61,792 bases of DNA, taken from NCBI GenBank assembly GCA_023265685.1, contig JAHFSP010000005.1, positions 1-61,792 on the forward strand. The letters are read 5' to 3'. A program made the translations under genes and the position numbers. This document shows positions 24,477 to 35,373 of the stretch, piece after piece; the first letter of the stretch is position 1; each line of letters opens with the position of its first letter. The stretch comes from Candidatus Woesearchaeota archaeon (lineage in GTDB: Archaea > Nanobdellota > Nanobdellia > Woesearchaeales > GW2011-AR9). The notes under the pieces were generated by a model. That model did not search any database. It was not told the DNA's origin and saw only the letters and a program-made list of their open reading frames with translations.

Positions 24477-24635
24477 GGACCCGTGGTCTAGTGGCTTACA
24501 TGAATTGATTCTTGAAAAAGAGACAGTTCATCTCCACACATGACGTTCGCCTGACTTGAAAAACTAATTTACCACAAGGAAAACGAGTTTCTCTCAGAGC
24601 GCGGAAGATCCCCGGTTCGAATCCGGGCGGGTCCA
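24477..24635 (+). tRNA. tRNA-Val(GAC) with two BHB introns (24497-24539 in D-loop; 24557-24599 at 37/38)
   Basis: Acceptor GGACCCG/CGGGTCC+A, T arm CCCGG-TTCGAAT-CCGGG, anticodon stem TTCGC/GCGGA. Removing both 43-nt BHB-bounded inserts gives a 73-nt cloverleaf. TATA-like sequence upstream. Confidence 0.88.
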
Positions 24636-24639
24636 CTCT

Positions 24640-24781
24640 TACTTCTTGTATCAAAACCAGGTCCCGGATTTGGAACGGGTCACGAACGCAGCGAAAGCGA
24701 AGTGACTCGACCCGGTTCGAATAGTTTCGCTCACGAAACGAACGAGAGCGAAGCTCGACTGTCCGGGCGGGTCCACTCTTA
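24640..24781 (+). repeat. tRNA-downstream element plus duplicated tRNA 3' end with T-loop insertion (copy 1)
   Basis: 24640-24710 matches 35155-35225 at 67/71 nt; 24711-24781 repeats CCCGGTTCGAA|TCCGGGCGGGTCCACTCTTA with a 40-nt hairpin insert (24722-24761). Confidence 0.9.
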
Positions 24782-24834
24782 TTTTAAAAGAAAGTCATCA
24801 ACATATATCTCTACTTACCATCCTCAACTGGCAT

Positions 24835-24867
24835 TTTCAACTGTACCTAAATTGGGGACAGTTGGAG
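24835..24867. terminator. Hairpin between the tRNA locus and the convergent S-layer gene
   Basis: CAACTGT(A)CC...GG(G)ACAGTTG inverted repeat; function inferred from position only. Confidence 0.3.
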
Positions 24868-25067
24868 CACAATGAATTCTCTCTTTTTGATCTTACCCCG
24901 TATTGTCTTGGAAAAGAGCATCAGTTAATAACCCTACAAACAAAATCCACTTCTTTTCTCAGATTGAATTTAATCTAACAACAATGAGAAAGAGGAGATT
25001 CTACACTACCAAAAAAACCATTCACAAAAAAGAAAGAGAAGAAAAAAAAAGAAAAAAACCGTTAGGT

Positions 25068-27779
25068 TTATTCTTCACCAGCTGCGACTGGAGCTGCTGC
25101 AGGGGCTGCGGCAGGAGCAGGTGCTCCTACACGAGCATCTTGGTAGGTTGTACCTTCAACTTCTACTTCCATACCAGAAAGTTCACCAGCTCTGTGGGCG
25201 ATTACTCGACCAGCAAGGCGGGTGTCAGCACCAGTGTAACCAGCTACTAACATAGCCATGTTACCGTTTGCGTGTTCGAATAATTTAACTCGAGCACGGC
25301 CAGGTGTGAATCCTTCTGTACAGTCAGCAGGGCTTCCTACAAGTTGAGCTGCAACGGTGTTAACACAAGGTCCACCAACAACAATCAAGTTTTGAGCAGC
25401 AACATCAGTTACTTCGCTGTCAAGACGAGTTGCATCAACAACGGTTACGCCTGAAAGTTCACCACGAGCATCGACTCCACCAGATACTGCGCCAGCTTCA
25501 ATAAAGACTTGAGCTTCTGCTTGCTGTTTAGGAACAGTTACAGTAAGTTCGTCAGCATTATTGTTGCTGCTGCCACTATCAGTTGCTTGAACAAGCAAGA
25601 GTCCGTAAGTAGTCATGGTTCGATCTTCATCAATATCCTGAAGACTTTGCATGGAGATGTTAGCGTTTAAGGTACTCTCTTCAGCACCAACATCCAAATC
25701 TACTTCGTTACTTGCAGCTTTCTGGATAAGAACTACAGTTGTCTCAGAGGCAGTTGCTTCATCAAGGTTGTCAGATGGGATACTCATGGTTACGTTGAAC
25801 GTATGTCCGTTACCAGCAGCTGCATTAAGCAAGTTACCAGAAGATACAACAGTCGAACCGGCAACACCAGTATATGACTGAGATTGTACACCAGTACTTG
25901 CGTTACCAGCTAATGGATTAATAACAAGTCCATTCTGCGATACAATCGCTGAACGAGATGTGTTAGTGATGGTTCCACTCTGATCTAAGTCCATAGTCAA
26001 GTTTCCGGTCGTCTCATCAACAACGAATGCATACGATTTACCACCAACAATGACTGCACCAACTCCTAAGCGAGTAATACTGTCTGAACTCATGTTGTTC
26101 CAATCAGCAATAACAGCTGCAACAGTTGCGTTTGTAGCTGCATCGTAGGTATCTTGGTAGGTTTGACCTGATCCAATGTCGCTAAATTGAACTTCGTTGT
26201 TACTTGTGTCTAAGCTATCAAAGCGAAGAACATACGTGTACGTTGTCTCATCAGCGCTTGCCATAGGGTCATCAGATAACACAACATACGCATCTTCGTC
26301 AATGACGAAATAACTTGTGTTATAGGTCTTCTCTATAAGAGAACTACTACTCTTGTTATAGCTCGATGGAAACTCTGTAAACCAAAGTCGGTCGCTGTCG
26401 TCTCCAAAGACAAAGTTGTTTCCGGAGTTGTCAACAAAAGGCACGTTATATTCAGTACCAGCAACGTTAGTGAATCGTAATGTATACGAATCATCGCTAC
26501 CAGCATCGAATTTAACTGTCTCAGAAGAAGCCTCATTAAGACCTTTGTAGGTTACATCCCAACCAGCGTGAAGCATACCTTGAGGTTCGTCAAGAGATTC
26601 ACGTAAGCCGTGTCCAGCAGAAATGAAAGCTTCATCGCCGCCTTTTCCATCAGCTTTAAGTTGGTACTTAATGTCGGTAATTTCAAGGGTTGTACTTGTG
26701 TTTGAACCAGTGATTTTAACCTGAGCATCTTCAATGTTTTCTTCATTGATTTTAACACCAGAGGTATAGAAAGAACTATCACTAATACTAGTATCTTCTA
26801 ACTCAATTTTGTCAGCACCAAGGAAGAATTCACATGATTGAATACCACCAGCAAAATCTTGGTAAAGTACTTCACTTACACCAATTTCAGTTCCGTCACT
26901 AAGACGATCAGTGTCACCATCGGTCAAAAGATCGGTAGTTTCACCGTTCACAACGAACTTACATTTGGTAGTATCAGCGAAGGCAAGTTCAACATTGTAC
27001 GCTTGACCATCAATGGTGTAGGATTTAGGAGTTCCTAAACTTACTACATCACGAACAGCGCCGCCCATCATTTCAAGTTGAACATCAGTAGCGCCGCCAC
27101 TTTCAGCGACTCTATTTGCATCAACAATGGTAAATTGTTTACCCATAATCCATACTGACTCATCTTCAAGATCATCTAAAGAGTTACTCACAAGGTCAGT
27201 TTCTAACCCTTCAGTAAATTCTAACTCGTATTCAAAGACATAGTCTCCATCTCCAAAGTAGAGAAAGTCGCTTGTTACGTCGTTATCATCTTCTGCAAAG
27301 GTAACCCGACCAGAATTTGATTTGGTACGAGTAAACGAACCTGCAGTTGTCTGAGTTTGAAGTCGTAAGAACTGATTTACTGGAGTTGTACCTTTATCAG
27401 TACTCATAGTATAAGACTTGAGTGCTTCAAGGTCAGAACCAGTTAAAGTTTCACGAACTTGACCAATATCTTCGTAGAGTTCAAGAAGATCTCCAGATTT
27501 AGAAACTGGAACTGCGTCTCCTTCAACAGTAACTTTACCAGCGCCTGCAGAAACAGGTTTATGGTACATCATACTTGCAGCGATATCAGTCATTGCAAGA
27601 TTATCAACAGATGCTGCGGCTTCTCCTACAACGAAATAGCCATTGAATACGCCATCCTTAACGAACATATCAGGATAGTTCTTCAAATCTGCAGCCAATG
27701 CGCCCATTGCGGTTGCACCAAGCATACCTACGCCAGCGCCAACAGCGAAAAGGCGTTTAACCACTCTTTTTATTTTCAT
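25068..27779 (-). CDS. S-layer protein
   Basis: Signal peptide ending ATAMGALA; N-terminal L..YP..F...G.FNG.FVVGE.A...D; C-terminal LDSEV....QNLIVVGGPCVN and LVAGY.G.DT; acidic, Ser/Thr-rich; GGAGGTG SD at 27789-27795. Confidence 0.92.
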   Translation of the reverse strand: MKIKRVVKRLFAVGAGVGMLGATAMGALAADLKNYPDMFVKDGVFNGYFVVGEAAASVDNLAMTDIAASMMYHKPVSAGAGKVTVEGDAVPVSKSGDLLELYEDIGQVRETLTGSDLEALKSYTMSTDKGTTPVNQFLRLQTQTTAGSFTRTKSNSGRVTFAEDDNDVTSDFLYFGDGDYVFEYELEFTEGLETDLVSNSLDDLEDESVWIMGKQFTIVDANRVAESGGATDVQLEMMGGAVRDVVSLGTPKSYTIDGQAYNVELAFADTTKCKFVVNGETTDLLTDGDTDRLSDGTEIGVSEVLYQDFAGGIQSCEFFLGADKIELEDTSISDSSFYTSGVKINEENIEDAQVKITGSNTSTTLEITDIKYQLKADGKGGDEAFISAGHGLRESLDEPQGMLHAGWDVTYKGLNEASSETVKFDAGSDDSYTLRFTNVAGTEYNVPFVDNSGNNFVFGDDSDRLWFTEFPSSYNKSSSSLIEKTYNTSYFVIDEDAYVVLSDDPMASADETTYTYVLRFDSLDTSNNEVQFSDIGSGQTYQDTYDAATNATVAAVIADWNNMSSDSITRLGVGAVIVGGKSYAFVVDETTGNLTMDLDQSGTITNTSRSAIVSQNGLVINPLAGNASTGVQSQSYTGVAGSTVVSSGNLLNAAAGNGHTFNVTMSIPSDNLDEATASETTVVLIQKAASNEVDLDVGAEESTLNANISMQSLQDIDEDRTMTTYGLLLVQATDSGSSNNNADELTVTVPKQQAEAQVFIEAGAVSGGVDARGELSGVTVVDATRLDSEVTDVAAQNLIVVGGPCVNTVAAQLVGSPADCTEGFTPGRARVKLFEHANGNMAMLVAGYTGADTRLAGRVIAHRAGELSGMEVEVEGTTYQDARVGAPAPAAAPAAAPVAAGEE

Positions 27780-27980
27780 TTCAAAACACACCTCCGTGTT
27801 TGAATATTCTAGTTGTTACCCAAGTCAACCTCTAAAAATTACGAACAACGCATCACGACGATACGCCTCTTTTCGAATTTAGAGGTCAGACTTGATGTAA
27901 AGCCAAAGAATGACCCGATAAGGATTAATCTAAGACTTTACTGTGTGTACCTCTCCAGACAGAAAAACGTTTTATAAGCC
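27780..27980 (-). promoter_or_regulatory. S-layer promoter and long structured 5' leader
   Basis: CTTATAAAA TATA box at about 27970-27978; long inverted repeat CAAGTC-ACCTCTAAA..CGAA / TTCG..TTTAGAGGT-GACTTG at about 27821-27895; SD next to the start. Confidence 0.6.
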
Positions 27981-28204
27981 TTTCGCAAAATCGAGGGTTA
28001 AAAAAACAAACTGTTTAGTTTTATGACTTATTTGTCGAAAATTTTTGAATATTATCAGTTCATCATCCGAAAATGACGAATTGCCAGATATAGAACAAAG
28101 TTCTATTTTTTTGAAGATTTGGAGTTCTTCAAAAGCCCACAATATCCTCAATCCCTCACAAACCAACATCACCTATATATAAGTACAGTTTTCTCAACAC
28201 GCAC

Positions 28205-28915
28205 ATGAACCCACACCTAAACCCTACTCCCAACGAAACAACACTCCCCTCAACTCTCCCCCTTCCCCATTTTTTCACCCAATATTATAGATCATTTGCC
28301 TCCCTTACCCCCATCCAAAGCAAGGCAATCGCCGCAGGTCTCTTAGAATCTCAATCACTTCTCATCTGCGCCCCCACCGCATCAGGCAAAACTCTTATTG
28401 CCACCATGGCCCTAAGCAGAATTCTTGGTCAAGGCAAAGGCATCTACCTTGTCCCCCTCAAAGCACTTGCCAATGAAAAATATAAAGAATACAAGAAACT
28501 TCTTGAAAACACACCCTACAAAGTAACTATTGCGACCGGTGATATGGACGAAATTGATGCACGACTTGAAAAATATGATCTTCTCATCCTTACAACAGAA
28601 AAATTCGATGCTCTCATCCGCCACCGAATTCCCTGGCTCAACCAAGTCAAAGTCGTAGTCATAGACGAAATTCATCTTCTCCAAGACACCAGCCGAGGTC
28701 CAACCCTCGAAATCATCCTAACCCTTCTCAAAACCAGAATCAAACCCCAACTCATCGGACTCTCAGCAACTATTGGCAACCCCGCACAACTCGCCGACTG
28801 GTTAAGCACAACTCTCGTTCAAGACACCTGGCGACCTGTTGAGTTACATCAAGGAATAGACACCCCGCAAGGCAAGACTCAATTCTACAATAAAGACAAA
28901 TCAAAACGAAACTGA
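28205..28915 (+). CDS. Ski2/Hel308-like helicase, N-terminal RecA domain only
   Basis: LTPIQ Q-motif, APTASGKT, VPLKALANEK, TTEKFD, IDEIH, GLSAT, WRPVEL; the ORF stops before the second RecA domain. Confidence 0.88.
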   Translation: MNPHLNPTPNETTLPSTLPLPHFFTQYYRSFASLTPIQSKAIAAGLLESQSLLICAPTASGKTLIATMALSRILGQGKGIYLVPLKALANEKYKEYKKLLENTPYKVTIATGDMDEIDARLEKYDLLILTTEKFDALIRHRIPWLNQVKVVVIDEIHLLQDTSRGPTLEIILTLLKTRIKPQLIGLSATIGNPAQLADWLSTTLVQDTWRPVELHQGIDTPQGKTQFYNKDKSKRN

Positions 28916-29190
28916 CAACGAACCGATTATACCCTCTAACAAGTCAACCCCCATATACTTACTAACTAAACACTTAGAGCACATACATTGTAAAAACTTA
29001 GATTGCTCACATAACCTTCCGAAATTAATCACTATGCCTGAATACCCCCGTAAGAATACCATTGTAAAATAAGATTATCAACGTTTTACCCATCAACACT
29101 AATCCCCGAAAAATTATAGAAAATAGCACGAAAAGATAAGAAAAATAAAATAGAAAAATAACACAAAAAATTAAACCAAACCGCTCAACA

Positions 29191-30924
29191 CTATCGTCGT
29201 GAAGGTGCTTTACTCTTCTTGCCACCCATCATAAACCATCCAACTAACACGATGGCGACAACAATGACAACAACCCAAATCCAAGTTGACGAACCCGAAC
29301 CGTTATCAACATCATCAGCAGGAGCAACGTCTGCTTGAGAAGGAGTTGGTTGTTCTGTTTGAGGCTGCGCATCACTTGGTTGAACTACAGGTGCCTGAAC
29401 AGGTTCCGTCGTTGTAGGTTTAATAGTTGGTTGAGGCGTAGATACAGGCTGTACAGCAACTTGACCTGGTTGGGCACCAACAGCAAAGTAACTAAAACTT
29501 GGAGTCGTTGCACTATATGAATGCATTTCTCCTTGTGCTGTATGGGTCGTACCTTTATAGGTTGTTGTAAGACGTACCCAATCATTATTGACATAATGAT
29601 ACAACGCAACACCCGCAGCAGCCACACCATTAGATTGAACCCATGCTGTAGGAACAAAGAAATTTACCTGAGCACCAGAAACAATATTAGGTTGTGACGA
29701 TGTTTTGGAAATTTCCATAAACTGATACGCTGTTGCACTAAGCGCACGGGTTCCTGCAGGACGTGTCGTTCCAAATGAACCTACAGAAAGGCGTAGGTCA
29801 GATGCATCTTTACTCAAAGTTGCAACAACAGAAGCAACAGCAATTCTGCTATCAGTGGAAGTCAATGTTGCAGTCTCACCTTGTTTAAGATTACTCCAAC
29901 TCTTCACAGTTGTACTAGTGGCAACATTTGTAACGATTGCTCCGCCACCTCCCCCACCACTGCTACTTCCACTCGAGGAAGATGCTGCAGAAACAGTAAA
30001 ACCAGTAGTGTTAGTCACACTATGACCAATATCATCTGTTGCAACACATGTTGCCGTATAACCACCAGCACTTGTCAGACCTAAATGACCACTAACCGAA
30101 GTAGTGACATTCGAATCCACACTATCCGTAGCCGTACAAGTACAAGTAGGATCAGTTCCTAAAGTAACACTCGTACAAGAAAGGGCAGTGAATGTAGGTG
30201 GATTTAAATCCACATAGAAAGTAGTGGTTTCTGTTGCGTTAGATAAATTAACCGAATTATTAGCAATAACAGTAAGTGTGTAGGACCCATCTCCCAAAAT
30301 AGAAATATTAAGAGAATTGTTTGACCACTGACTTACTAAAGCACCATATTGAAACGCAGGAGATAACCGAACCTGGCCACTACTATTAGACAAGTTATAA
30401 GTGACTGAAACTACATTGGTTACTGAGTCAGTGATAGTTGCATTTATCAAAGTACTCGTGTTAGTTTGGTTAAACACAACTCCACTACTAGGGGAAAGAA
30501 AGGTAACCAGTGGAGCCGAATTATCAACTCGAACATTCGTAATGTTCAGATTTGCAGTTGCAGCAAACGTCGTCGAGTTAAAGTTAGTACCGGCAGCCGA
30601 TTGGTTGAACGCATAACCAGTGACATTATAGTTCCCATCATTAAGAAGACGAGTATTAACCTGGTAGCGCCAAGATGTATTTGTTGCTTCGTTGGGTGTT
30701 GCGTTACTAAAGTTCGCAACCATAAACCCTCCCGACTGGTTCCAAAAACCCCAAGTAACGTTCGTAGCATTAATCGTAGTCATATTAAGCAAAAATGTAC
30801 CCGTAATGTTCTGGCTATTAATCGGCCCCAACACAGTGAGCGTAAGCTGACCTTCAGCAATTGCAACAACAAGTATAGCTGCAATAACCACAAATAAAGA
30901 TAATAATATTGTTGTACGTTTCAA
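29191..30924 (-). CDS. PGF-pre-PGF domain surface glycoprotein with Ig-like domains
   Basis: Signal peptide, many NxS/T sequons, VDNSAP and VDLNPP Ig ends, SSSGGGGG linker, YSATTPSFSYFAVG, Pro/Thr linker, C-terminal TM plus basic tail; GAGGTG SD before TTG 30924. Confidence 0.88.
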   Translation of the reverse strand: MKRTTILLSLFVVIAAILVVAIAEGQLTLTVLGPINSQNITGTFLLNMTTINATNVTWGFWNQSGGFMVANFSNATPNEATNTSWRYQVNTRLLNDGNYNVTGYAFNQSAAGTNFNSTTFAATANLNITNVRVDNSAPLVTFLSPSSGVVFNQTNTSTLINATITDSVTNVVSVTYNLSNSSGQVRLSPAFQYGALVSQWSNNSLNISILGDGSYTLTVIANNSVNLSNATETTTFYVDLNPPTFTALSCTSVTLGTDPTCTCTATDSVDSNVTTSVSGHLGLTSAGGYTATCVATDDIGHSVTNTTGFTVSAASSSSGSSSGGGGGGAIVTNVATSTTVKSWSNLKQGETATLTSTDSRIAVASVVATLSKDASDLRLSVGSFGTTRPAGTRALSATAYQFMEISKTSSQPNIVSGAQVNFFVPTAWVQSNGVAAAGVALYHYVNNDWVRLTTTYKGTTHTAQGEMHSYSATTPSFSYFAVGAQPGQVAVQPVSTPQPTIKPTTTEPVQAPVVQPSDAQPQTEQPTPSQADVAPADDVDNGSGSSTWIWVVVIVVAIVLVGWFMMGGKKSKAPSRR

Positions 30925-31186
30925 TCTAAACACCTCTTTTGATGACACTTTCAACCTAAAATAAATAACACAGAAAGTGAAACTAAGTTCTAGAACAGAT
31001 ATTCAGGTTAATAAAGATTTTGTTTTCAATAAATTAAAACAAGAGATAAAAATTACAAAAAAAAGTTATAAAAATTGTTAAATGCACTTTTTTAATAGAT
31101 TTTCAAGATAATGTTCAAATGTAAAATGCATCGAAAACTATCAACAATAAGTTAGAAAACAAGTTAAAGTTGACCTTCTGAAAATA

Positions 31187-32386
31187 TTACCCGAAATCTT
31201 TAATCACTTTAAGAACCAAATCGAATTCTCTACGAGCATACGTTTTCTTATATGAAGCAACCAGGCCACGCAAAATATCTTTATCAACAACCAACCCTTT
31301 ACGTACAAACCTCTCACGCAACCTACACAAATAATCCACAAATTGAGTTACATTTTGAGGACGTAAATCAGCGTGAGCTCGCTCAAAATCAATAAGAACT
31401 GGTACATACTTCACAACCCCCACAGAAGAAACTGTGTTTGAAATAATAATATGTTTAAACGGATGATGCATCTCCTCTTTGGTAATCCCTAATGTATCTA
31501 AAACAAAACACTGTTTTAACAAATCCATAACAACCCCCACAATCTCTTCAACGGAATGAGTCGTAATCCATTCCTCGAATAAAACTCCTTCAATAAACTC
31601 AAGAACCAGAAACCCCTCCCCTTTCACTAACAACCTAGCTCCAATTTTCTTCAAATTTACCTTCGACAAAATCTGCGCTTCACGAACACTACTTGCCATG
31701 GAAGCACTTCCCAACTGCTCAACTTTAATCGCAACCTTCCTCGTGCCTTTAAAACCACGATACACCCTCCCCCTCTTACCCTTAGCATGAAATGAAATAG
31801 ACCTAATACCCAGAGCCTCCAACTCAACAAGAAGAGAAGACCGAGTAATCTTATAGACATACAACTCCTCAAAAGAAATTTTCGTACTTCCGACAAGTTC
31901 CCAACCCAAAAGACGATCCCGCAAAATCTGATCAATCTTAACCTTATTAGTCAATGTTGAAAACAAAAATAAAACAATCCCCCCTCGATTAAGATGTGAA
32001 ACAACACTTTCAAAAAACCGTTCTGAAATCTCCCACCCATTTTTACCACCATATAATGCCAGATTATGAATACCCTCATCCTGCGGCAAATAAGGCGGAT
32101 TGAAAATAATTGTATCGAATTTTCCACGAACCTTTTCAAAAAGATCACTCTGAATAATTGTAAGCTTCGCAACTCTTTGCTTTCTTTTTTGAAAACACAA
32201 CTCTTCAATAACCGCAGGATTGATATCAACCGCTGTGACACTGCTCACTCGCTTATTTTTCAACGCCGTGAACGCCTGAATACCTGATCCCGTACCAACA
32301 TCAAGCACAGTACCAAAAGCATATTTTTCAACTACTTTAGCAAGAAGGATAGAATCCTCAGCGGGTTCGTAAATAGAATCGTGCAT
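31187..32386 (-). CDS. HemK2/Mtq2-type methyltransferase fused to a protein-kinase-like domain
   Basis: IYEPAEDS, LDVGTGSG, FNPPYLP; then AKGKRGRVY, VAIK, EAQIL, LEFIEG, HPFKHII, LIDFE. Confidence 0.88.
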   Translation of the reverse strand: MHDSIYEPAEDSILLAKVVEKYAFGTVLDVGTGSGIQAFTALKNKRVSSVTAVDINPAVIEELCFQKRKQRVAKLTIIQSDLFEKVRGKFDTIIFNPPYLPQDEGIHNLALYGGKNGWEISERFFESVVSHLNRGGIVLFLFSTLTNKVKIDQILRDRLLGWELVGSTKISFEELYVYKITRSSLLVELEALGIRSISFHAKGKRGRVYRGFKGTRKVAIKVEQLGSASMASSVREAQILSKVNLKKIGARLLVKGEGFLVLEFIEGVLFEEWITTHSVEEIVGVVMDLLKQCFVLDTLGITKEEMHHPFKHIIISNTVSSVGVVKYVPVLIDFERAHADLRPQNVTQFVDYLCRLRERFVRKGLVVDKDILRGLVASYKKTYARREFDLVLKVIKDFG

Positions 32387-32646
32387 ACACGCAAAACACC
32401 CCCTTCCTAAATAAATATTCCTAGATGAAATGTGATAGATATACCAATATACCCTCGTGAAGTTGATAGTGAAGTTTATAGCAAAGTACGATCTCAACAA
32501 TTCCAAAAGAAAATGTAAATCAAAACACCAGAATCAATTAACCACATTGAGCGAACTAAAAGCCTACCCAAAAATCACCCCATTAAAACTGCCACACCAC
32601 ATTTTTATTAAAAAAAAATCACATTGAAAACATCTATTCTTTCTCT

Positions 32647-33153
32647 TCAATTCTTCCTCTTCAACTCCGCAATCTCCTTCTTTAAGTGCAATAAAATTTC
32701 CAATTGCTTCTGATCAATCTGTAAATCGCGAATATCTTTCTCTAAATCCAATTCAGCTCGAGCCTGATCACGTTTAGCAGCACGATTCTGACTCATCAAA
32801 ATAATCGGAGCCTGCACCGCAGCCAGCATTGAAAGACCCAAATTGAGTAAAATGAAAGGAAAAGGATCATACGCAGATACCAAAATGACCGCATTAAGGA
32901 TAATCCATCCTATCAACACAACAAAAAAAGTAGTGATAAAACTCCAACTTCCACCAACCTCAGCGATTCTATCCGATAACTTATCAAGCTTCTTCAAATC
33001 TCTCTTATAAAGAAGATCAAGTCTTTGAAGAGTACTTTCAACTTTGTGAATTTCATGCTCAAAAACTTGAATAATATCCTCCTCCGCATCAAAAAGAACG
33101 CGAGACGTAGAATATGAAGATGAATCTTTATGAGTAAGTTTTTTCACAGCCAT
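32647..33153 (-). CDS. DUF1003 membrane protein
   Basis: SDRIAEVGGSWSFI, YDPFPFILLNL.LS.LAA.QAPIILMSQNR. Confidence 0.92.
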   Translation of the reverse strand: MAVKKLTHKDSSSYSTSRVLFDAEEDIIQVFEHEIHKVESTLQRLDLLYKRDLKKLDKLSDRIAEVGGSWSFITTFFVVLIGWIILNAVILVSAYDPFPFILLNLGLSMLAAVQAPIILMSQNRAAKRDQARAELDLEKDIRDLQIDQKQLEILLHLKKEIAELKRKN

Positions 33154-33155
33154 TC

Positions 33156-33270
33156 TAACACCATTTTTAACACCATTTTCATAGACATCTACGCCACCCT
33201 AATCTACTCTTTCTATACCCTTAATCTACACCTTCTACTTCCTAATCTACACTCTAAAATCTACACCCCA
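33156..33270. repeat. Decayed intergenic tandem repeats
   Basis: TAACACCATTTT x2, then several (T)AATCTACAC-like units. Confidence 0.55.
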
Positions 33271-33274
33271 AAAT

Positions 33275-34753
33275 TTACACCACCCTATATCCAATCGATT
33301 CTTTGAGAACATCATTTGCTAAATCACGATGCGACTCACTCTCACTATACACAGTATAGAGAACTGTTCCCTTAGAAACACGTACCCCATTACGAACATG
33401 AACATAAACGCCTGCCCCCTTATCCAAAGGAGCACCAGCAACTCGCGCCACCCGAGCAATAATCTCATTATCAATCTCTTTCACGACTCCAGCACGCACT
33501 GAACGCACATCAATTGTAAACGACCCCAATTTCATTGGCTTCTGGACACCCTGAGCCCGAATCATCTCTTGCATTTTCACATGAGCCTTCCCACTCACTA
33601 AAATTTCCGAAACGCGAGTAAACGCCTGACTCATTGAACATTTACAAACCATCTGGAGTAATTGGGCCGCCATAAAGAGAGCTTTAGAACGTAAATCTTG
33701 AGGTGCCGCAGGTTCATTACGTAACACCGACATAACATCATTTGCTTCCAGAAGAGGACCTACCCCATATCCAATCGGCTGTGAGCCATCAGTGATAATC
33801 ACACGCATCGTCATTCCTAAACGCTCTCCCACCGCCGTAAACATTTTTTTAAGATGCTCAGCTTCCGCACGTGTTTTGACCTTTGCCGTTTTCCCCATGG
33901 GAATATCAATCAAGACGTGTGACGAACCAACAGAATATTTCTTCGCCATGACTGATGCCAACATCTGACCCTCAGCATCAATTGAAAGAGGATGTTCAAC
34001 CGTAATAATCTTATCATCAGCAGGTGCTAAATTCATCGCCCCACCATGGACAATACATGCACCTGTTTTCTTAACAACCTGTTTGATTTTTTTCTCGGAA
34101 AGCATGACCTTTGCTAAACACTCCATTGTATCTGCTGTTCCCGCAGGTGATGTAATTGCCCGTGAACTAGTTTTAGGAATAGTATAACCAGCCGCCGCAA
34201 TAATGGGAATCACAATCATCGTCGTACGATTTCCAGGAAGTCCGCCTATACAATGTTTATCCAACGTTGGCTTTCCAAAATGAAGTTTTTCTCCCGTATC
34301 AACCATCGCTTTAGTCATATCAACCGTTTCGCGCAAATCCCATCCATGCACAAACCCCGCTGACACAAAATACGTTTTTTCAATATCACTTAATCGATCA
34401 TGAGTAATATCATCAATAATCGCAAATAACTCTTTATATGACAACTTTGTACCAAACAACTTCTTTCGAATATATTCCAGCGACTCCGGCTTACCAGCAT
34501 ATCGCACTCGCACCATATTCCCTTTTGTAACACGTAACTGCGTCAAGACCTCTTCAAACAAACCAATTGAACCTTCAGGCACCGCCTTTTCGTTTTGTGC
34601 AATATCAAGTAAACAAATAATTTCTTTGGGATGATCTTTAATTGCAATCCGATCTCCATTATGTAAATCGAGACGCAACGCATCATTCTTATGCAAGATA
34701 GCAACCAACGGACCACCCGTTGCAATATCCATATCCTTAACTTTAAAACGCAT
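33275..34753 (-). CDS. deoA: AMP phosphorylase (thymidine phosphorylase family)
   Basis: DKHCIGGLPGNRTT, PKTSSRAITSPAGTAD, APADDKII, DGSQPIG.GVGP.LEA, AGAP.DKGAG. Confidence 0.95.
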   Translation of the reverse strand: MRFKVKDMDIATGGPLVAILHKNDALRLDLHNGDRIAIKDHPKEIICLLDIAQNEKAVPEGSIGLFEEVLTQLRVTKGNMVRVRYAGKPESLEYIRKKLFGTKLSYKELFAIIDDITHDRLSDIEKTYFVSAGFVHGWDLRETVDMTKAMVDTGEKLHFGKPTLDKHCIGGLPGNRTTMIVIPIIAAAGYTIPKTSSRAITSPAGTADTMECLAKVMLSEKKIKQVVKKTGACIVHGGAMNLAPADDKIITVEHPLSIDAEGQMLASVMAKKYSVGSSHVLIDIPMGKTAKVKTRAEAEHLKKMFTAVGERLGMTMRVIITDGSQPIGYGVGPLLEANDVMSVLRNEPAAPQDLRSKALFMAAQLLQMVCKCSMSQAFTRVSEILVSGKAHVKMQEMIRAQGVQKPMKLGSFTIDVRSVRAGVVKEIDNEIIARVARVAGAPLDKGAGVYVHVRNGVRVSKGTVLYTVYSESESHRDLANDVLKESIGYRVV

Positions 34754-35010
34754 ACCTATCCCTCTTTTTTATGCAGCTCACTAATTCCACCTGCAAACCT
34801 ATCTAATCATCTATCTAATCAAAATGAATCATTTTATTGTTTATATAGATTTGGGATGGTCGAGTTGAGAAGAAAGCAAAACATCAAATCTTTAAATCTA
34901 GACACACACTTTTGAGCCTATTACAATCCTGTCCTGATCCTGCCTAGGTTCTGTCCAGGCCCATTACATAAAAAGATTTAAAAAACACCGCTTGATCTGA
35001 CCTGTTTAGT

Positions 35011-35150
35011 GGGCCCGTGGTCTAGCGGTTACGGAAATGAACAATTCCGCCACAGATGACAGCGCCCTTACAAGAAGACATGAATGGTTCAAACCAAACA
35101 AATGCTTCTCTGAAAGGCGTTAGTCCCCGGTTCAAATCCGGGCGGGCCCA
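35011..35150 (+). tRNA. tRNA-Val(TAC) with two introns (35031-35055 in D-loop; 35073-35114 at 37/38)
   Basis: Acceptor GGGCCCG/CGGGCCC+A, anticodon arm GCGCC-CTTACAA-GGCGT after splicing, T arm CCCGG-TTCAAAT-CCGGG; 73 nt mature; relaxed BHB motifs. Confidence 0.9.
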
Positions 35151-35154
35151 TTTA

Positions 35155-35291
35155 TACTTCTTTTATCAAAACCAGATTACGGATTTGGAACGGGTCACGA
35201 ACGCAGCGAAAGCGAAGTGACTCGACCCGGTTCAAATACCTTGTGAGGGACCACAAACCCCTCGGGTTTGAGTGTCCGGGCGGGCCCATTT
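35155..35291 (+). repeat. tRNA-downstream element plus duplicated tRNA 3' end with T-loop insertion (copy 2)
   Basis: 35155-35225 nearly identical to 24640-24710; 35226-35291 repeats CCCGGTTCAAA|TCCGGGCGGGCCCATTT with a 38-nt insert (35237-35274). Confidence 0.9.
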
Positions 35292-35373
35292 TTATTTTCC
35301 CATTCATTTCTTATAGCCCATATCTTTCTCTAAAACCACACTTTTTATATACCAAAACTAATCTAAGATCACC

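Follow-up and report, generated by a model that had tools for sequence, protein, structure and literature searches.

How does an intron come to lie in an archaeal tRNA gene? A 2026 preprint (10.64898/2026.10.13.758758), in the part that concerns this point, still regards the route of arrival as open. Here we examine two tRNA-Val genes that raise the question in an unusual form. They lie 10 kb apart in a 61,792-nucleotide stretch of DNA, the window, from a Candidatus Woesearchaeota archaeon (assembly GCA_023265685.1, contig JAHFSP010000005.1, positions 1 to 61,792, forward strand). Each gene is followed by the same short, hairpin-bearing module, and the module is followed by a second copy of that gene's own 3′ end. 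Why should a tRNA gene have two 3′ ends, and what is the module that stands between them?

A first-pass annotation of the window, made from its letters alone, had proposed a non-autonomous element that targets tRNA genes, an integration decoy, or an intermediate in the gain or loss of tRNA introns. Our results support that interpretation of the module in part. With moderate confidence, we read the two loci as working three-exon tRNA-Val genes that have undergone a lineage-specific duplicative insertion of a kind that seeds tRNA introns; the first copy of the 3′ end would be the one used and the distal copy would be redundant.

Below, G000 is the genome of the window and G001 a genome of the same genus. 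Locus A is tRNA-Val(GAC) and locus B is tRNA-Val(UAC).

Results

A shared module and a second 3′ end at both loci

The 71-mers at 24640-24710 and 35155-35225 are identical at 67 of 71 bases, the four mismatches that the annotation had counted. BLAST aligns locus A with locus B at 91% identity over 115 nt (E about 5e-37). What follows the module is a direct repeat. At locus A, 24611-24641 is repeated exactly at 24711-24721 and 24762-24781, split by 40 nt (24722-24761). At locus B, 35126-35153 is repeated at 35226-35236 and 35275-35291, split by 38 nt (35237-35274). The second copy holds the T arm, the acceptor strand and 3-6 trailer bases. Modules A and B share 94% identity, yet every repeat carries the alleles of its own gene: A alleles in both A copies, B alleles in both B copies. 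The repeat is not, then, a fixed attP. A target-specific duplication, as the annotation had it, remains the simplest reading of the own-allele repeats; concerted evolution between the two copies is the alternative. The observation of the module and of duplicated 3′ ends at both loci is confirmed.

The module has a recognizable anatomy. Module A (24642-24710, plus strand) consists of a spacer (24642-24662), an inverted T-arm-like stretch, H1 (24663-24679), a capped hairpin, H2 (24677-24708), and the linker CTCGA (24706-24710). Module B (35154-35225, plus strand) has a spacer, a degenerate H1 (35178-35194), H2 (35192-35223) and a linker that ends at 35225. Both the inverted stretch and the CGGGTCAC/GTGACTCG hairpin of the annotation are present. 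H2 has the stem GTCAC/GTGAC and a loop made of GAAC, a mini-hairpin and GAA. The constant part of the module is H2, then CTCGA, then the distal T arm. Upstream of H2, the inverted T-arm copy is imperfect and can pair, in the predicted fold, with either T-arm copy. Module A scores 65.5 bits with R1, a covariance model of H2. No Rfam family matches the module in the window at the gathering score, where E-value mode returns sub-threshold tmRNA or snoRNA only, and Rfam finds nothing relevant at the loci of four relatives.

The distal copies are laid out alike, both on the plus strand. Distal copy A (24711-24785) begins with the T-stem 5′ strand and loop (24711-24721), followed by the 40-nt predicted intron (24722-24761). 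Position 60 and the T-stem 3′ strand (24762-24767), the acceptor strand (24768-24774) and the discriminator (24775) come next, and then a copy of the trailer (24776-24781) and a T run (24782-24785). In distal copy B (35226-35293) the corresponding parts are the T-stem 5′ strand and loop (35226-35236), the 38-nt predicted intron (35237-35274), position 60 and the T-stem 3′ strand (35275-35280), the acceptor strand (35281-35287), the discriminator (35288) and a T run (35289-35293).

Could collapsed or chimeric tRNA repeats have produced this picture during assembly? De Bruijn contigs do break at the T arm and the shared intron, with loose ends at 24621, 24674, 24711, 24722 and 24771. Contigs from two separate DNA runs nevertheless span 24612-24740 and 24606-24740, each with 0 differences. 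Because they run unchanged through the first copy, the module and the distal T arm, locus A is not an assembly artefact. Locus B has almost no contig cover in the DNA runs, and the check bears on locus A. The same architecture also occurs in independent genomes, and an artefact strikes us as extremely improbable. Both DNA runs, and both RNA runs used below, come from one groundwater study, and one DNA run may be the source sample.

The tRNA genes upstream of the modules are complete

As read from the sequence, tRNA-Val(GAC) occupies 24477-24635 on the plus strand, with exons at 24477-24498, 24541-24556 and 24600-24635. A D-loop intron (24499-24540) and an anticodon-loop intron at 37/38 (24557-24599) separate them. 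Its first 3′ end comprises the T arm (24611-24627), the acceptor 3′ strand (24628-24634) and the discriminator (24635), and the trailer CTCTTA (24636-24641) recurs after the distal copy at 24776-24781. The gene for tRNA-Val(UAC) lies at 35011-35150 on the same strand, with exons at 35011-35031, 35057-35072 and 35115-35150, a D-loop intron at 35032-35056, an anticodon intron at 35073-35114 and its first T arm at 35126-35142. Once the D-loop and anticodon introns are cut out by coordinates, ARAGORN calls tRNA-Val(gac) at locus A and tRNA-Val(tac) at locus B. Contiguous exons alone yield both genes, and neither is a split or permuted tRNA.

Standard tools miss these genes. Default ARAGORN finds no tRNA gene in the whole window, nor does Rfam at the gathering score, and ARAGORN with introns allowed assigns wrong types to both (Ser, SeC). 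The exon layout of tRNA-Val(GAC) is the same in its G001 ortholog, and the tRNA-Val(UAC) ortholog in G001 is syntenic. The neighbouring LonB is 93% identical to a protein labelled Candidatus Woesearchaeota at its source, and the organism belongs to the DPANN archaea. One detail of locus A concerns the anticodon loop: given the perfect bulge-helix-bulge (BHB) of the anticodon intron (central CTGA/TCAG), the mature loop (24551-24557 plus 24600) would read CTGACTC. Position 37 would be a pyrimidine, which is unusual; the same holds in the G001 ortholog (L013).

The module recurs at other tRNA genes

Is the module anything more than one duplicated tRNA-Val locus? The H2 pattern occurs in 4 of 114 genomes of the family, and R1 detects it in 33 of the 114 at E<=0.01. 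GTDB species genomes yield only two family genomes (G490 and G047) plus two high-GC chance matches, viral contigs give 0 hits, and 12 metagenome contigs match, four of them tRNA-linked, one low in GC and not tRNA-linked, and seven GC-rich (0.55 or higher). An order-wide sample gave the exact pattern in 1 of 401 genomes (G000 only), a result that says little because the sample held just 7 own-family genomes.

Two-copy loci number 11, in nine family genomes and one metagenome sequence. They involve tRNA-Val(UAC) in six genomes (G000, G001, G047, G043, G505, G048), tRNA-Val(GAC) in G000, tRNA-Pro(UGG) in G490 and G477, and tRNA-Ser in G474 and the metagenome sequence (L065/L070). Since the module is found at several tRNA genes in other genomes, always with the gene's own 3′-end duplicate, it is a recurrent entity and not a single duplicated tRNA-Val locus. 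In all loci its right end, H2 plus linker, abuts the distal repeat, and its left part, spacer and inverted arm, is variable and target-derived.

A second form links the module to introns. At six loci, plus a looser case in G060, the same module with an 11-nt duplication constitutes a T-loop intron of 55-72 nt. These are a tRNA-Ser(CGA) gene on contig C13 of G000, loci in G059, G021, G057 and G473, and a metagenome tRNA-Pro (L064/L071). The proposal of an intermediate in intron gain or loss gains real support from this, because the same hairpin with an internal T-arm copy makes up long T-loop introns at 6-7 other tRNA loci.

How well are the distal copies preserved? Read by eye from printed sequences over 25 exonic bases, distal and first copies agree at 25/25 in G000 A, G000 B, G477, G043, G505 and the metagenome Ser locus, at 24/25 in G474, 23/25 in G047 and 21/25 in G001, with G048 and G490 worse. 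In G477 the distal copy is a perfect 26-nt repeat. Because the first copy in G505 has a T-loop intron, first copies are not always intron-free.

Comparison with G001 bears on movement. In G001, the locus-B ortholog has both the module and a distal copy that is decaying; the locus-A ortholog has no module and a single 3′ end with a different T-loop intron. Modules A and B are 94% identical, and module B matches its G001 ortholog at roughly three quarters of positions, by an eye count on the alignment. Module A is closer to B than B is to its own ortholog, and the A ortholog lacks the module, which indicates that it was copied within this lineage.

There may of course have been no mobility at all: 3′ ends could have been partly duplicated in tandem long ago, once or a few times, and gene conversion, both within a locus and among paralogous loci, could have kept them alike, H2 being a common structural hairpin that lay at the junction by chance. 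The variant GACGAGAGAGGG upstream of H2 is common to the tRNA-Val(UAC) two-copy loci of G043, G505, G048 and G047, which belong to four genera, and because it is shared, common descent of those loci is suggested. Deletion between direct repeats would readily explain single-copy relatives, such as G001 locus A with its retained T-loop intron, and one intron family sits in copy 1 of G505 and in copy 2 of G043, as exchange between copies would give. Set against this are the conserved H2 and own-allele duplicates that recur with four tRNA identities and at three unrelated non-tRNA targets, a target-derived inverted arm at each of those three targets, and the much greater closeness of module A to module B than of B to its ortholog. 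A ScpA tree also scatters the two-copy state, with only 2 of 12 inner branches well supported; with that resolution we dropped it for dating gains and losses. On balance we consider an immobile origin unlikely, though old duplications with gene conversion may hold for tRNA-Val(UAC).

Two observations stand apart from this comparison. The locus-A intron of G001 resembles the reverse complement of H2 (score 22), a score that 5 of 500 shuffles matched, and we rejected the likeness as too weak. In G064 (locus L029), two more partial 3′-end copies follow tRNA-Val. They include encoded CCA and T runs, and before each stands a different hairpin, of the TTCTAACC..GGTTAGG type and not H2; the architecture is analogous and the cap is another.

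H2 away from tRNA genes

The annotation had described the element as targeting tRNA genes. It does recur there, and it is not specific to them. Among the 30 R1 loci listed, 13 are tRNA-linked and 17 are not, so that H2 does not always follow tRNA genes. H2-like hairpins also follow open reading frames (ORFs) and occur in intergenic hairpins, and two repeat families of genome G008 contain about ten copies of them.

Three non-tRNA loci (L099, L100, L090) show the full order: target, short spacer, inverted target start, H2, linker, target. Their direct repeats span 28-37 aligned bases and outscored all 200 shuffles in every case. At all three the inverted arm is the reverse complement of the start of the repeat. 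At L099 the last ~35 nt of the ORF stand in three tandem copies with H2 hairpins between them. The two G008 families that contain an H2-like hairpin are L111-L115 and L108-L110. One of these families is about 190 bp long, with ends that are mutually inverted repeats and TA-rich flanks, and so resembles a miniature inverted-repeat transposable element (MITE).

T-loop introns and two routes to a mature tRNA

What are the 40- and 38-nt inserts that interrupt the distal copies? They sit at T-loop position 59/60, the T-loop equivalent of 37/38, and removing them restores the exact T arm at both loci. At locus A the outer helix is the 5-bp T stem, the central helix has 3 of 4 pairs, the 3-nt bulges are AA|T and TG|T, and the inner helix is 10 bp. 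At locus B the central helix has 4 of 4 pairs and the bulges are the same. Judged by these sequence features, the inserts are standard archaeal BHB tRNA introns. The interrupting hairpins noted at the first pass are present, then, but are not special to the duplicates: such introns are common in this genome. A structural scan found 19 T-loop insertions, of which 16 lie in further candidate tRNA genes after subtraction of the two distal copies and one doubtful hit. The T-loop and intron segment of locus A matches three other tRNA genes (on C55, C51 and C33) at 46/47, 46/47 and 43/47 positions (91-98%).

The third H2 of this genome lies inside the T loop of the C13 tRNA-Ser(CGA) gene. The 5′ strand and loop of its T arm (11 nt) appear again behind H2. 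A BHB whose central helix, TTCG/CGAA, is perfect encloses the 72-nt insert. A comparable 'giant' BHB can be drawn at loci A and B between the first-copy T loop and the distal 3′ half-site. Its outer and central helices are the same as those of the short intron and of the 72-nt C13 intron. Its contiguous inner helix is 0 bp, as is that of the C13 intron. H2 itself is not an anticodon arm with an intron, a BHB or a kink turn: by hand inspection it has no U33, no 4-bp central helix and no tandem G.A register. Nor is the distal copy a tandem pseudo-tRNA, since the spacer and inverted arm are unlike an acceptor strand or D arm.

This organism appears to carry out BHB splicing, because a splicing endonuclease is encoded (EndA; PF01974 match, 104.8 bits, contig C44) and a BHB-bounded stretch of 30 nt is gone from RNA and not from DNA. 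That stretch lies at 27840-27869 on the minus strand, upstream of an S-layer-like gene (25068-27791). Exactly these 30 nt are absent from RNA contigs in both metatranscriptome runs (contig depths 17.7 and 52.3), and they are missing from no DNA contig. The BHB has an 8-bp outer helix, the central helix CGAA/TTCG and bulges AA|G and TA|A; its predicted cuts coincide with the missing stretch within a 1-nt alignment ambiguity. It may be a BHB intron in the leader of the S-layer mRNA.

At the tRNA-Val loci, two maturation routes can be envisaged. In the first, the first copy would complete the cloverleaf and give the mature 3′ end, the rest being cut off as a 3′ trailer. In the second, the first-copy T loop would serve as a 5′ half-site and pair with the distal 3′ half-site, so that 140 nt (A) or 138 nt (B) would be excised. 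Both routes give identical sequences, which ARAGORN calls Val(gac) and Val(tac). The second cannot apply to G047, G477 and G490, because their distal copies have no 3′ half-site.

The loci might also be regulated or fail-safe genes. The distal copy would then be a 3′ exon under selection and in regular use; a long BHB intron would begin at the first-copy T loop, happen to include a pseudo 3′ end and close at the distal 3′ splice site; and H2 would aid folding or splicing. A selected alternative 3′ exon would explain why distal copies are conserved: the distal exon is 25/25 in G000 A and B and, by eye, also in G043, G505, G477 and L065, and the distal acceptor tracks its own 5′ acceptor strand across genera (CGGGTCC, CGGGCCC, CAGGCCC, CAGCCCC, CGTTGGC). 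T runs of 4 or more in G000 come after the distal copy (at A there is none after copy 1), and the intron-form genes must splice over the same internal decoy. Yet a T6-T8 run directly follows the first copy in G047 and G064, three distal copies are without any 3′ splice half-site, and others are decaying (G001 B and G490, at 21/25 and worse by eye). In every case, moreover, the first copy is a complete 3′ end, and the module also stands at ORF ends, where the logic of tRNA splicing is irrelevant. We regard a regulated or fail-safe role as improbable.

Search for an enzyme or the body of a mobile element

The annotation had noted no integrase or transposase nearby, and a Pfam scan of 10 ORFs between 22.5 and 38.2 kb contains no integrase. 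The whole G000 genome holds one tyrosine recombinase (PF00589), on contig C9. Direct repeats of tRNA 3′ ends are the classic mark of integrative elements, and Sugahara et al. 2012 (PMC3293823) proposed, in the portion relevant here, that tRNA introns or fragments can be gained through a mobile element. Might the two copies be relics of attL and attR, left when the body of an integrase-borne element was deleted and ~70 nt stayed behind? Several findings speak against it. Across the 11 two-copy loci no element body or integrase lies between the copies, and the insert is roughly 70-110 nt by eye. The single tyrosine recombinase of G000 is on another contig, and the H2 pattern has 0 hits in viral contigs. 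Both A repeats carry A alleles, not the hybrid sites expected if a B-type element had integrated. Inverted target copies and targets at ORF ends are not att features. Ordinary chromosome, in synteny with G001, fills the 10 kb that separate locus A from locus B, and where synteny does break, it does so away from the tRNA genes. We find an att relic distinctly unlikely.

We also rejected that 10-kb interval as a mobile element: its genes are ordinary and syntenic with G001 apart from a rearrangement break between 32387 and 32654. Window 20.0-32.4 kb corresponds to G001 786-798 kb and window 32.65-38.6 kb to G001 738-744 kb, so that synteny breaks at 32387-32654. Within the interval, a 236-aa ORF (28205-28915) encodes the N-terminal DEAD-box helicase domain only and may be a truncated or split helicase gene.

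Other enzymes fared no better. Cas1 is absent from all four genomes searched (0/4), and we dropped a casposon or CRISPR-like staggered integration. An IS200/IS605 origin was suggested by features of the module that resemble subterminal hairpins. It too was rejected, since TnpB domains occur in 0 of 5 genomes and Y1 transposases in only 2 of 5 (G000 and G008), and the flanks of the G000 Y1 genes hold other hairpins and show no similarity to the module. The IS200-like Y1 genes of G000 lie at C51:79415-79777, C24:7614-7973 and C21:181-540. Over 611 bp the C24 copy matches the C21 copy at 98% identity, and the C51 copy is flanked by a 22-nt direct repeat that contains a hairpin. No nuclease or recombinase was found to accompany the module: there is no integrase at the loci, no Cas1 or TnpB, and Y1 does not co-occur with it. 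For an integration decoy, nothing we tested provides support.

Discussion

We return to the question of why these genes have two 3′ ends. The anatomy of the module, its recurrence at other tRNA genes and at three non-tRNA targets, and its short-duplication version as a T-loop intron are all observed directly. A duplicative insertion would account for them as follows. The insert would have four parts: a spacer that varies, the beginning of the target (here the T arm) in inverted copy, the conserved H2 and the short linker CTCGA. It would be bracketed by a direct duplication of the target, from the first T-arm base to 3-6 bases past the discriminator. The event would happen in DNA and copy the target locally. 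If the redundant first 3′ end were then lost, the gene would be left with a new, long T-loop intron, and in this way the module would seed introns. If the distal copy decayed instead, as in G001 and G490, a plain gene would result. As to the source of the inverted and direct target copies, a template switch by fold-back at a palindrome, or a nuclease or integrase, are guesses only.

Several findings weigh against this account. No enzyme co-occurs with the module: Y1 has three hits in G000 and none in G001, G047 or G490. The direct repeat is absent at 11 of the 14 non-tRNA H2 loci examined, so a duplication does not invariably accompany H2. Between genera the spacer is not conserved, the inverted arm is not recognizable in G047, and for these reasons a fixed transposon fits poorly. 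A T-loop insertion, and with it a 3′ half-site, is missing from the distal copies of G047, G477 and G490. Across genera the spacers diverge, yet distal copies stay close to identical with first copies; this requires selection or recurrent gene conversion, and a simple redundant relic would not lead one to expect it. Coverage by RNA contigs is confined to 25081-27948, the region of the S-layer gene, outside both tRNA-Val loci. Finally, the polarity at locus A can be read in two ways. A recent gain takes about as many events as two copies of ancient date followed by loss in G001 and a later conversion by B. Locus A may have gained the module recently, or G001 may have lost it by recombination between the repeats.

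How does the module compare with known systems? Non-canonical BHB introns, and their transposition between tRNA genes, are known in Thermoproteales (Fujishima et al. 2010, Sugahara et al. 2008, as cited in a part of 10.64898/2026.10.13.758758). Like the introns described here, those are short, sit in BHBs at non-canonical sites, the T loop among them, and are near-identical across tRNA types of one genome; the sharing of one intron family by four genes at 91-98% identity is of this kind. They differ in that our case concerns a DPANN Woesearchaeon, in which one intron family has a capped hairpin and an internal copy of the interrupted exon, and in that the module is also found at non-tRNA targets and in a form that duplicates the gene's entire 3′ end.

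A displaced tRNA fragment and intron gain were tied to the insertion of foreign DNA in a tRNA gene in the case treated, in the section pertinent here, by Sugahara et al. 2012 (PMC3293823). Our insert differs from that element in being only ~70 nt long and gene-free and in including an inverted copy of the target. The element of that earlier case is reportedly 1.8 kb long and carries a recombinase gene. With attL/attR the module shares a direct repeat of the 3′ part of a tRNA, the upstream copy of which completes the gene; it differs in having no integrase, no element body, own-gene alleles, an inverted arm and targets at ORF ends. MITEs and small palindromic repeats are likewise small, non-coding, hairpin-forming inserts flanked by a direct repeat. 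In our case, by contrast, the duplications are 11-37 nt, the spacer is unconserved and the tRNA loci show no terminal inverted repeats of the insert's own; the hairpin alone is constant, since some of the insert copies the target in inverted form.

Split and permuted tRNA genes are known from Nanoarchaeum, Caldivirga and Thermofilum (Chan et al. 2011, PMC3218864, in the part relevant to such genes). There too, tRNA pieces lie beside sequences complementary to parts of the tRNA, and maturation needs a BHB. Here, in contrast, both genes are contiguous and complete, and the extra piece is a duplicate, not the sole copy. Repeats of 4-30 bp at intron borders, with an argument for transposon-like insertion of introns, appear in a portion of Rogers and Bendich 2025 (PMC11782384).

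Intron sharing between tRNA genes, non-canonical introns and the disruption of tRNA genes by elements are therefore already in print. Full-text literature searches that left subscription journals and supplements outside their scope returned nothing about T-loop introns in Woesearchaeota or about a hairpin module accompanied by duplication of its target at the 3′ ends of tRNA genes. The hairpin stands a fair chance of marking a small duplicative element of a new kind. More tentatively, H2 could mark a new small duplicative insertion in Woesearchaeales that combines the hairpin, an inverted target start and a direct 11-37 nt duplication and that creates BHB introns at T arms, its cause being an enzyme or fold-back repair; archaeal tRNA introns would then have a concrete way of being born.

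What would this mean more widely? Missing or undetected tRNAs in DPANN have been noted in parts of Kaneta et al. 2018 (PMC5829648) and of a 2026 preprint on Nanobdellota (10.64898/2026.05.13.725050), the latter with tRNA-Val missing in 15 of 54 Pacearchaeales. Genes such as the two studied here explain in part why standard tools miss tRNA genes in these genomes. The arrival of archaeal tRNA introns is an open question, and related genomes, at partly orthologous loci, hold what look like both ends of a pathway. At one end is a complete gene with the module and a duplicated 3′ end; at the other, the module forms a spliced-looking T-loop intron with an internal exon copy. With both forms in one lineage, the birth of introns by duplicative insertion becomes directly testable. 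These loci may show one way in which archaeal tRNA introns arise.

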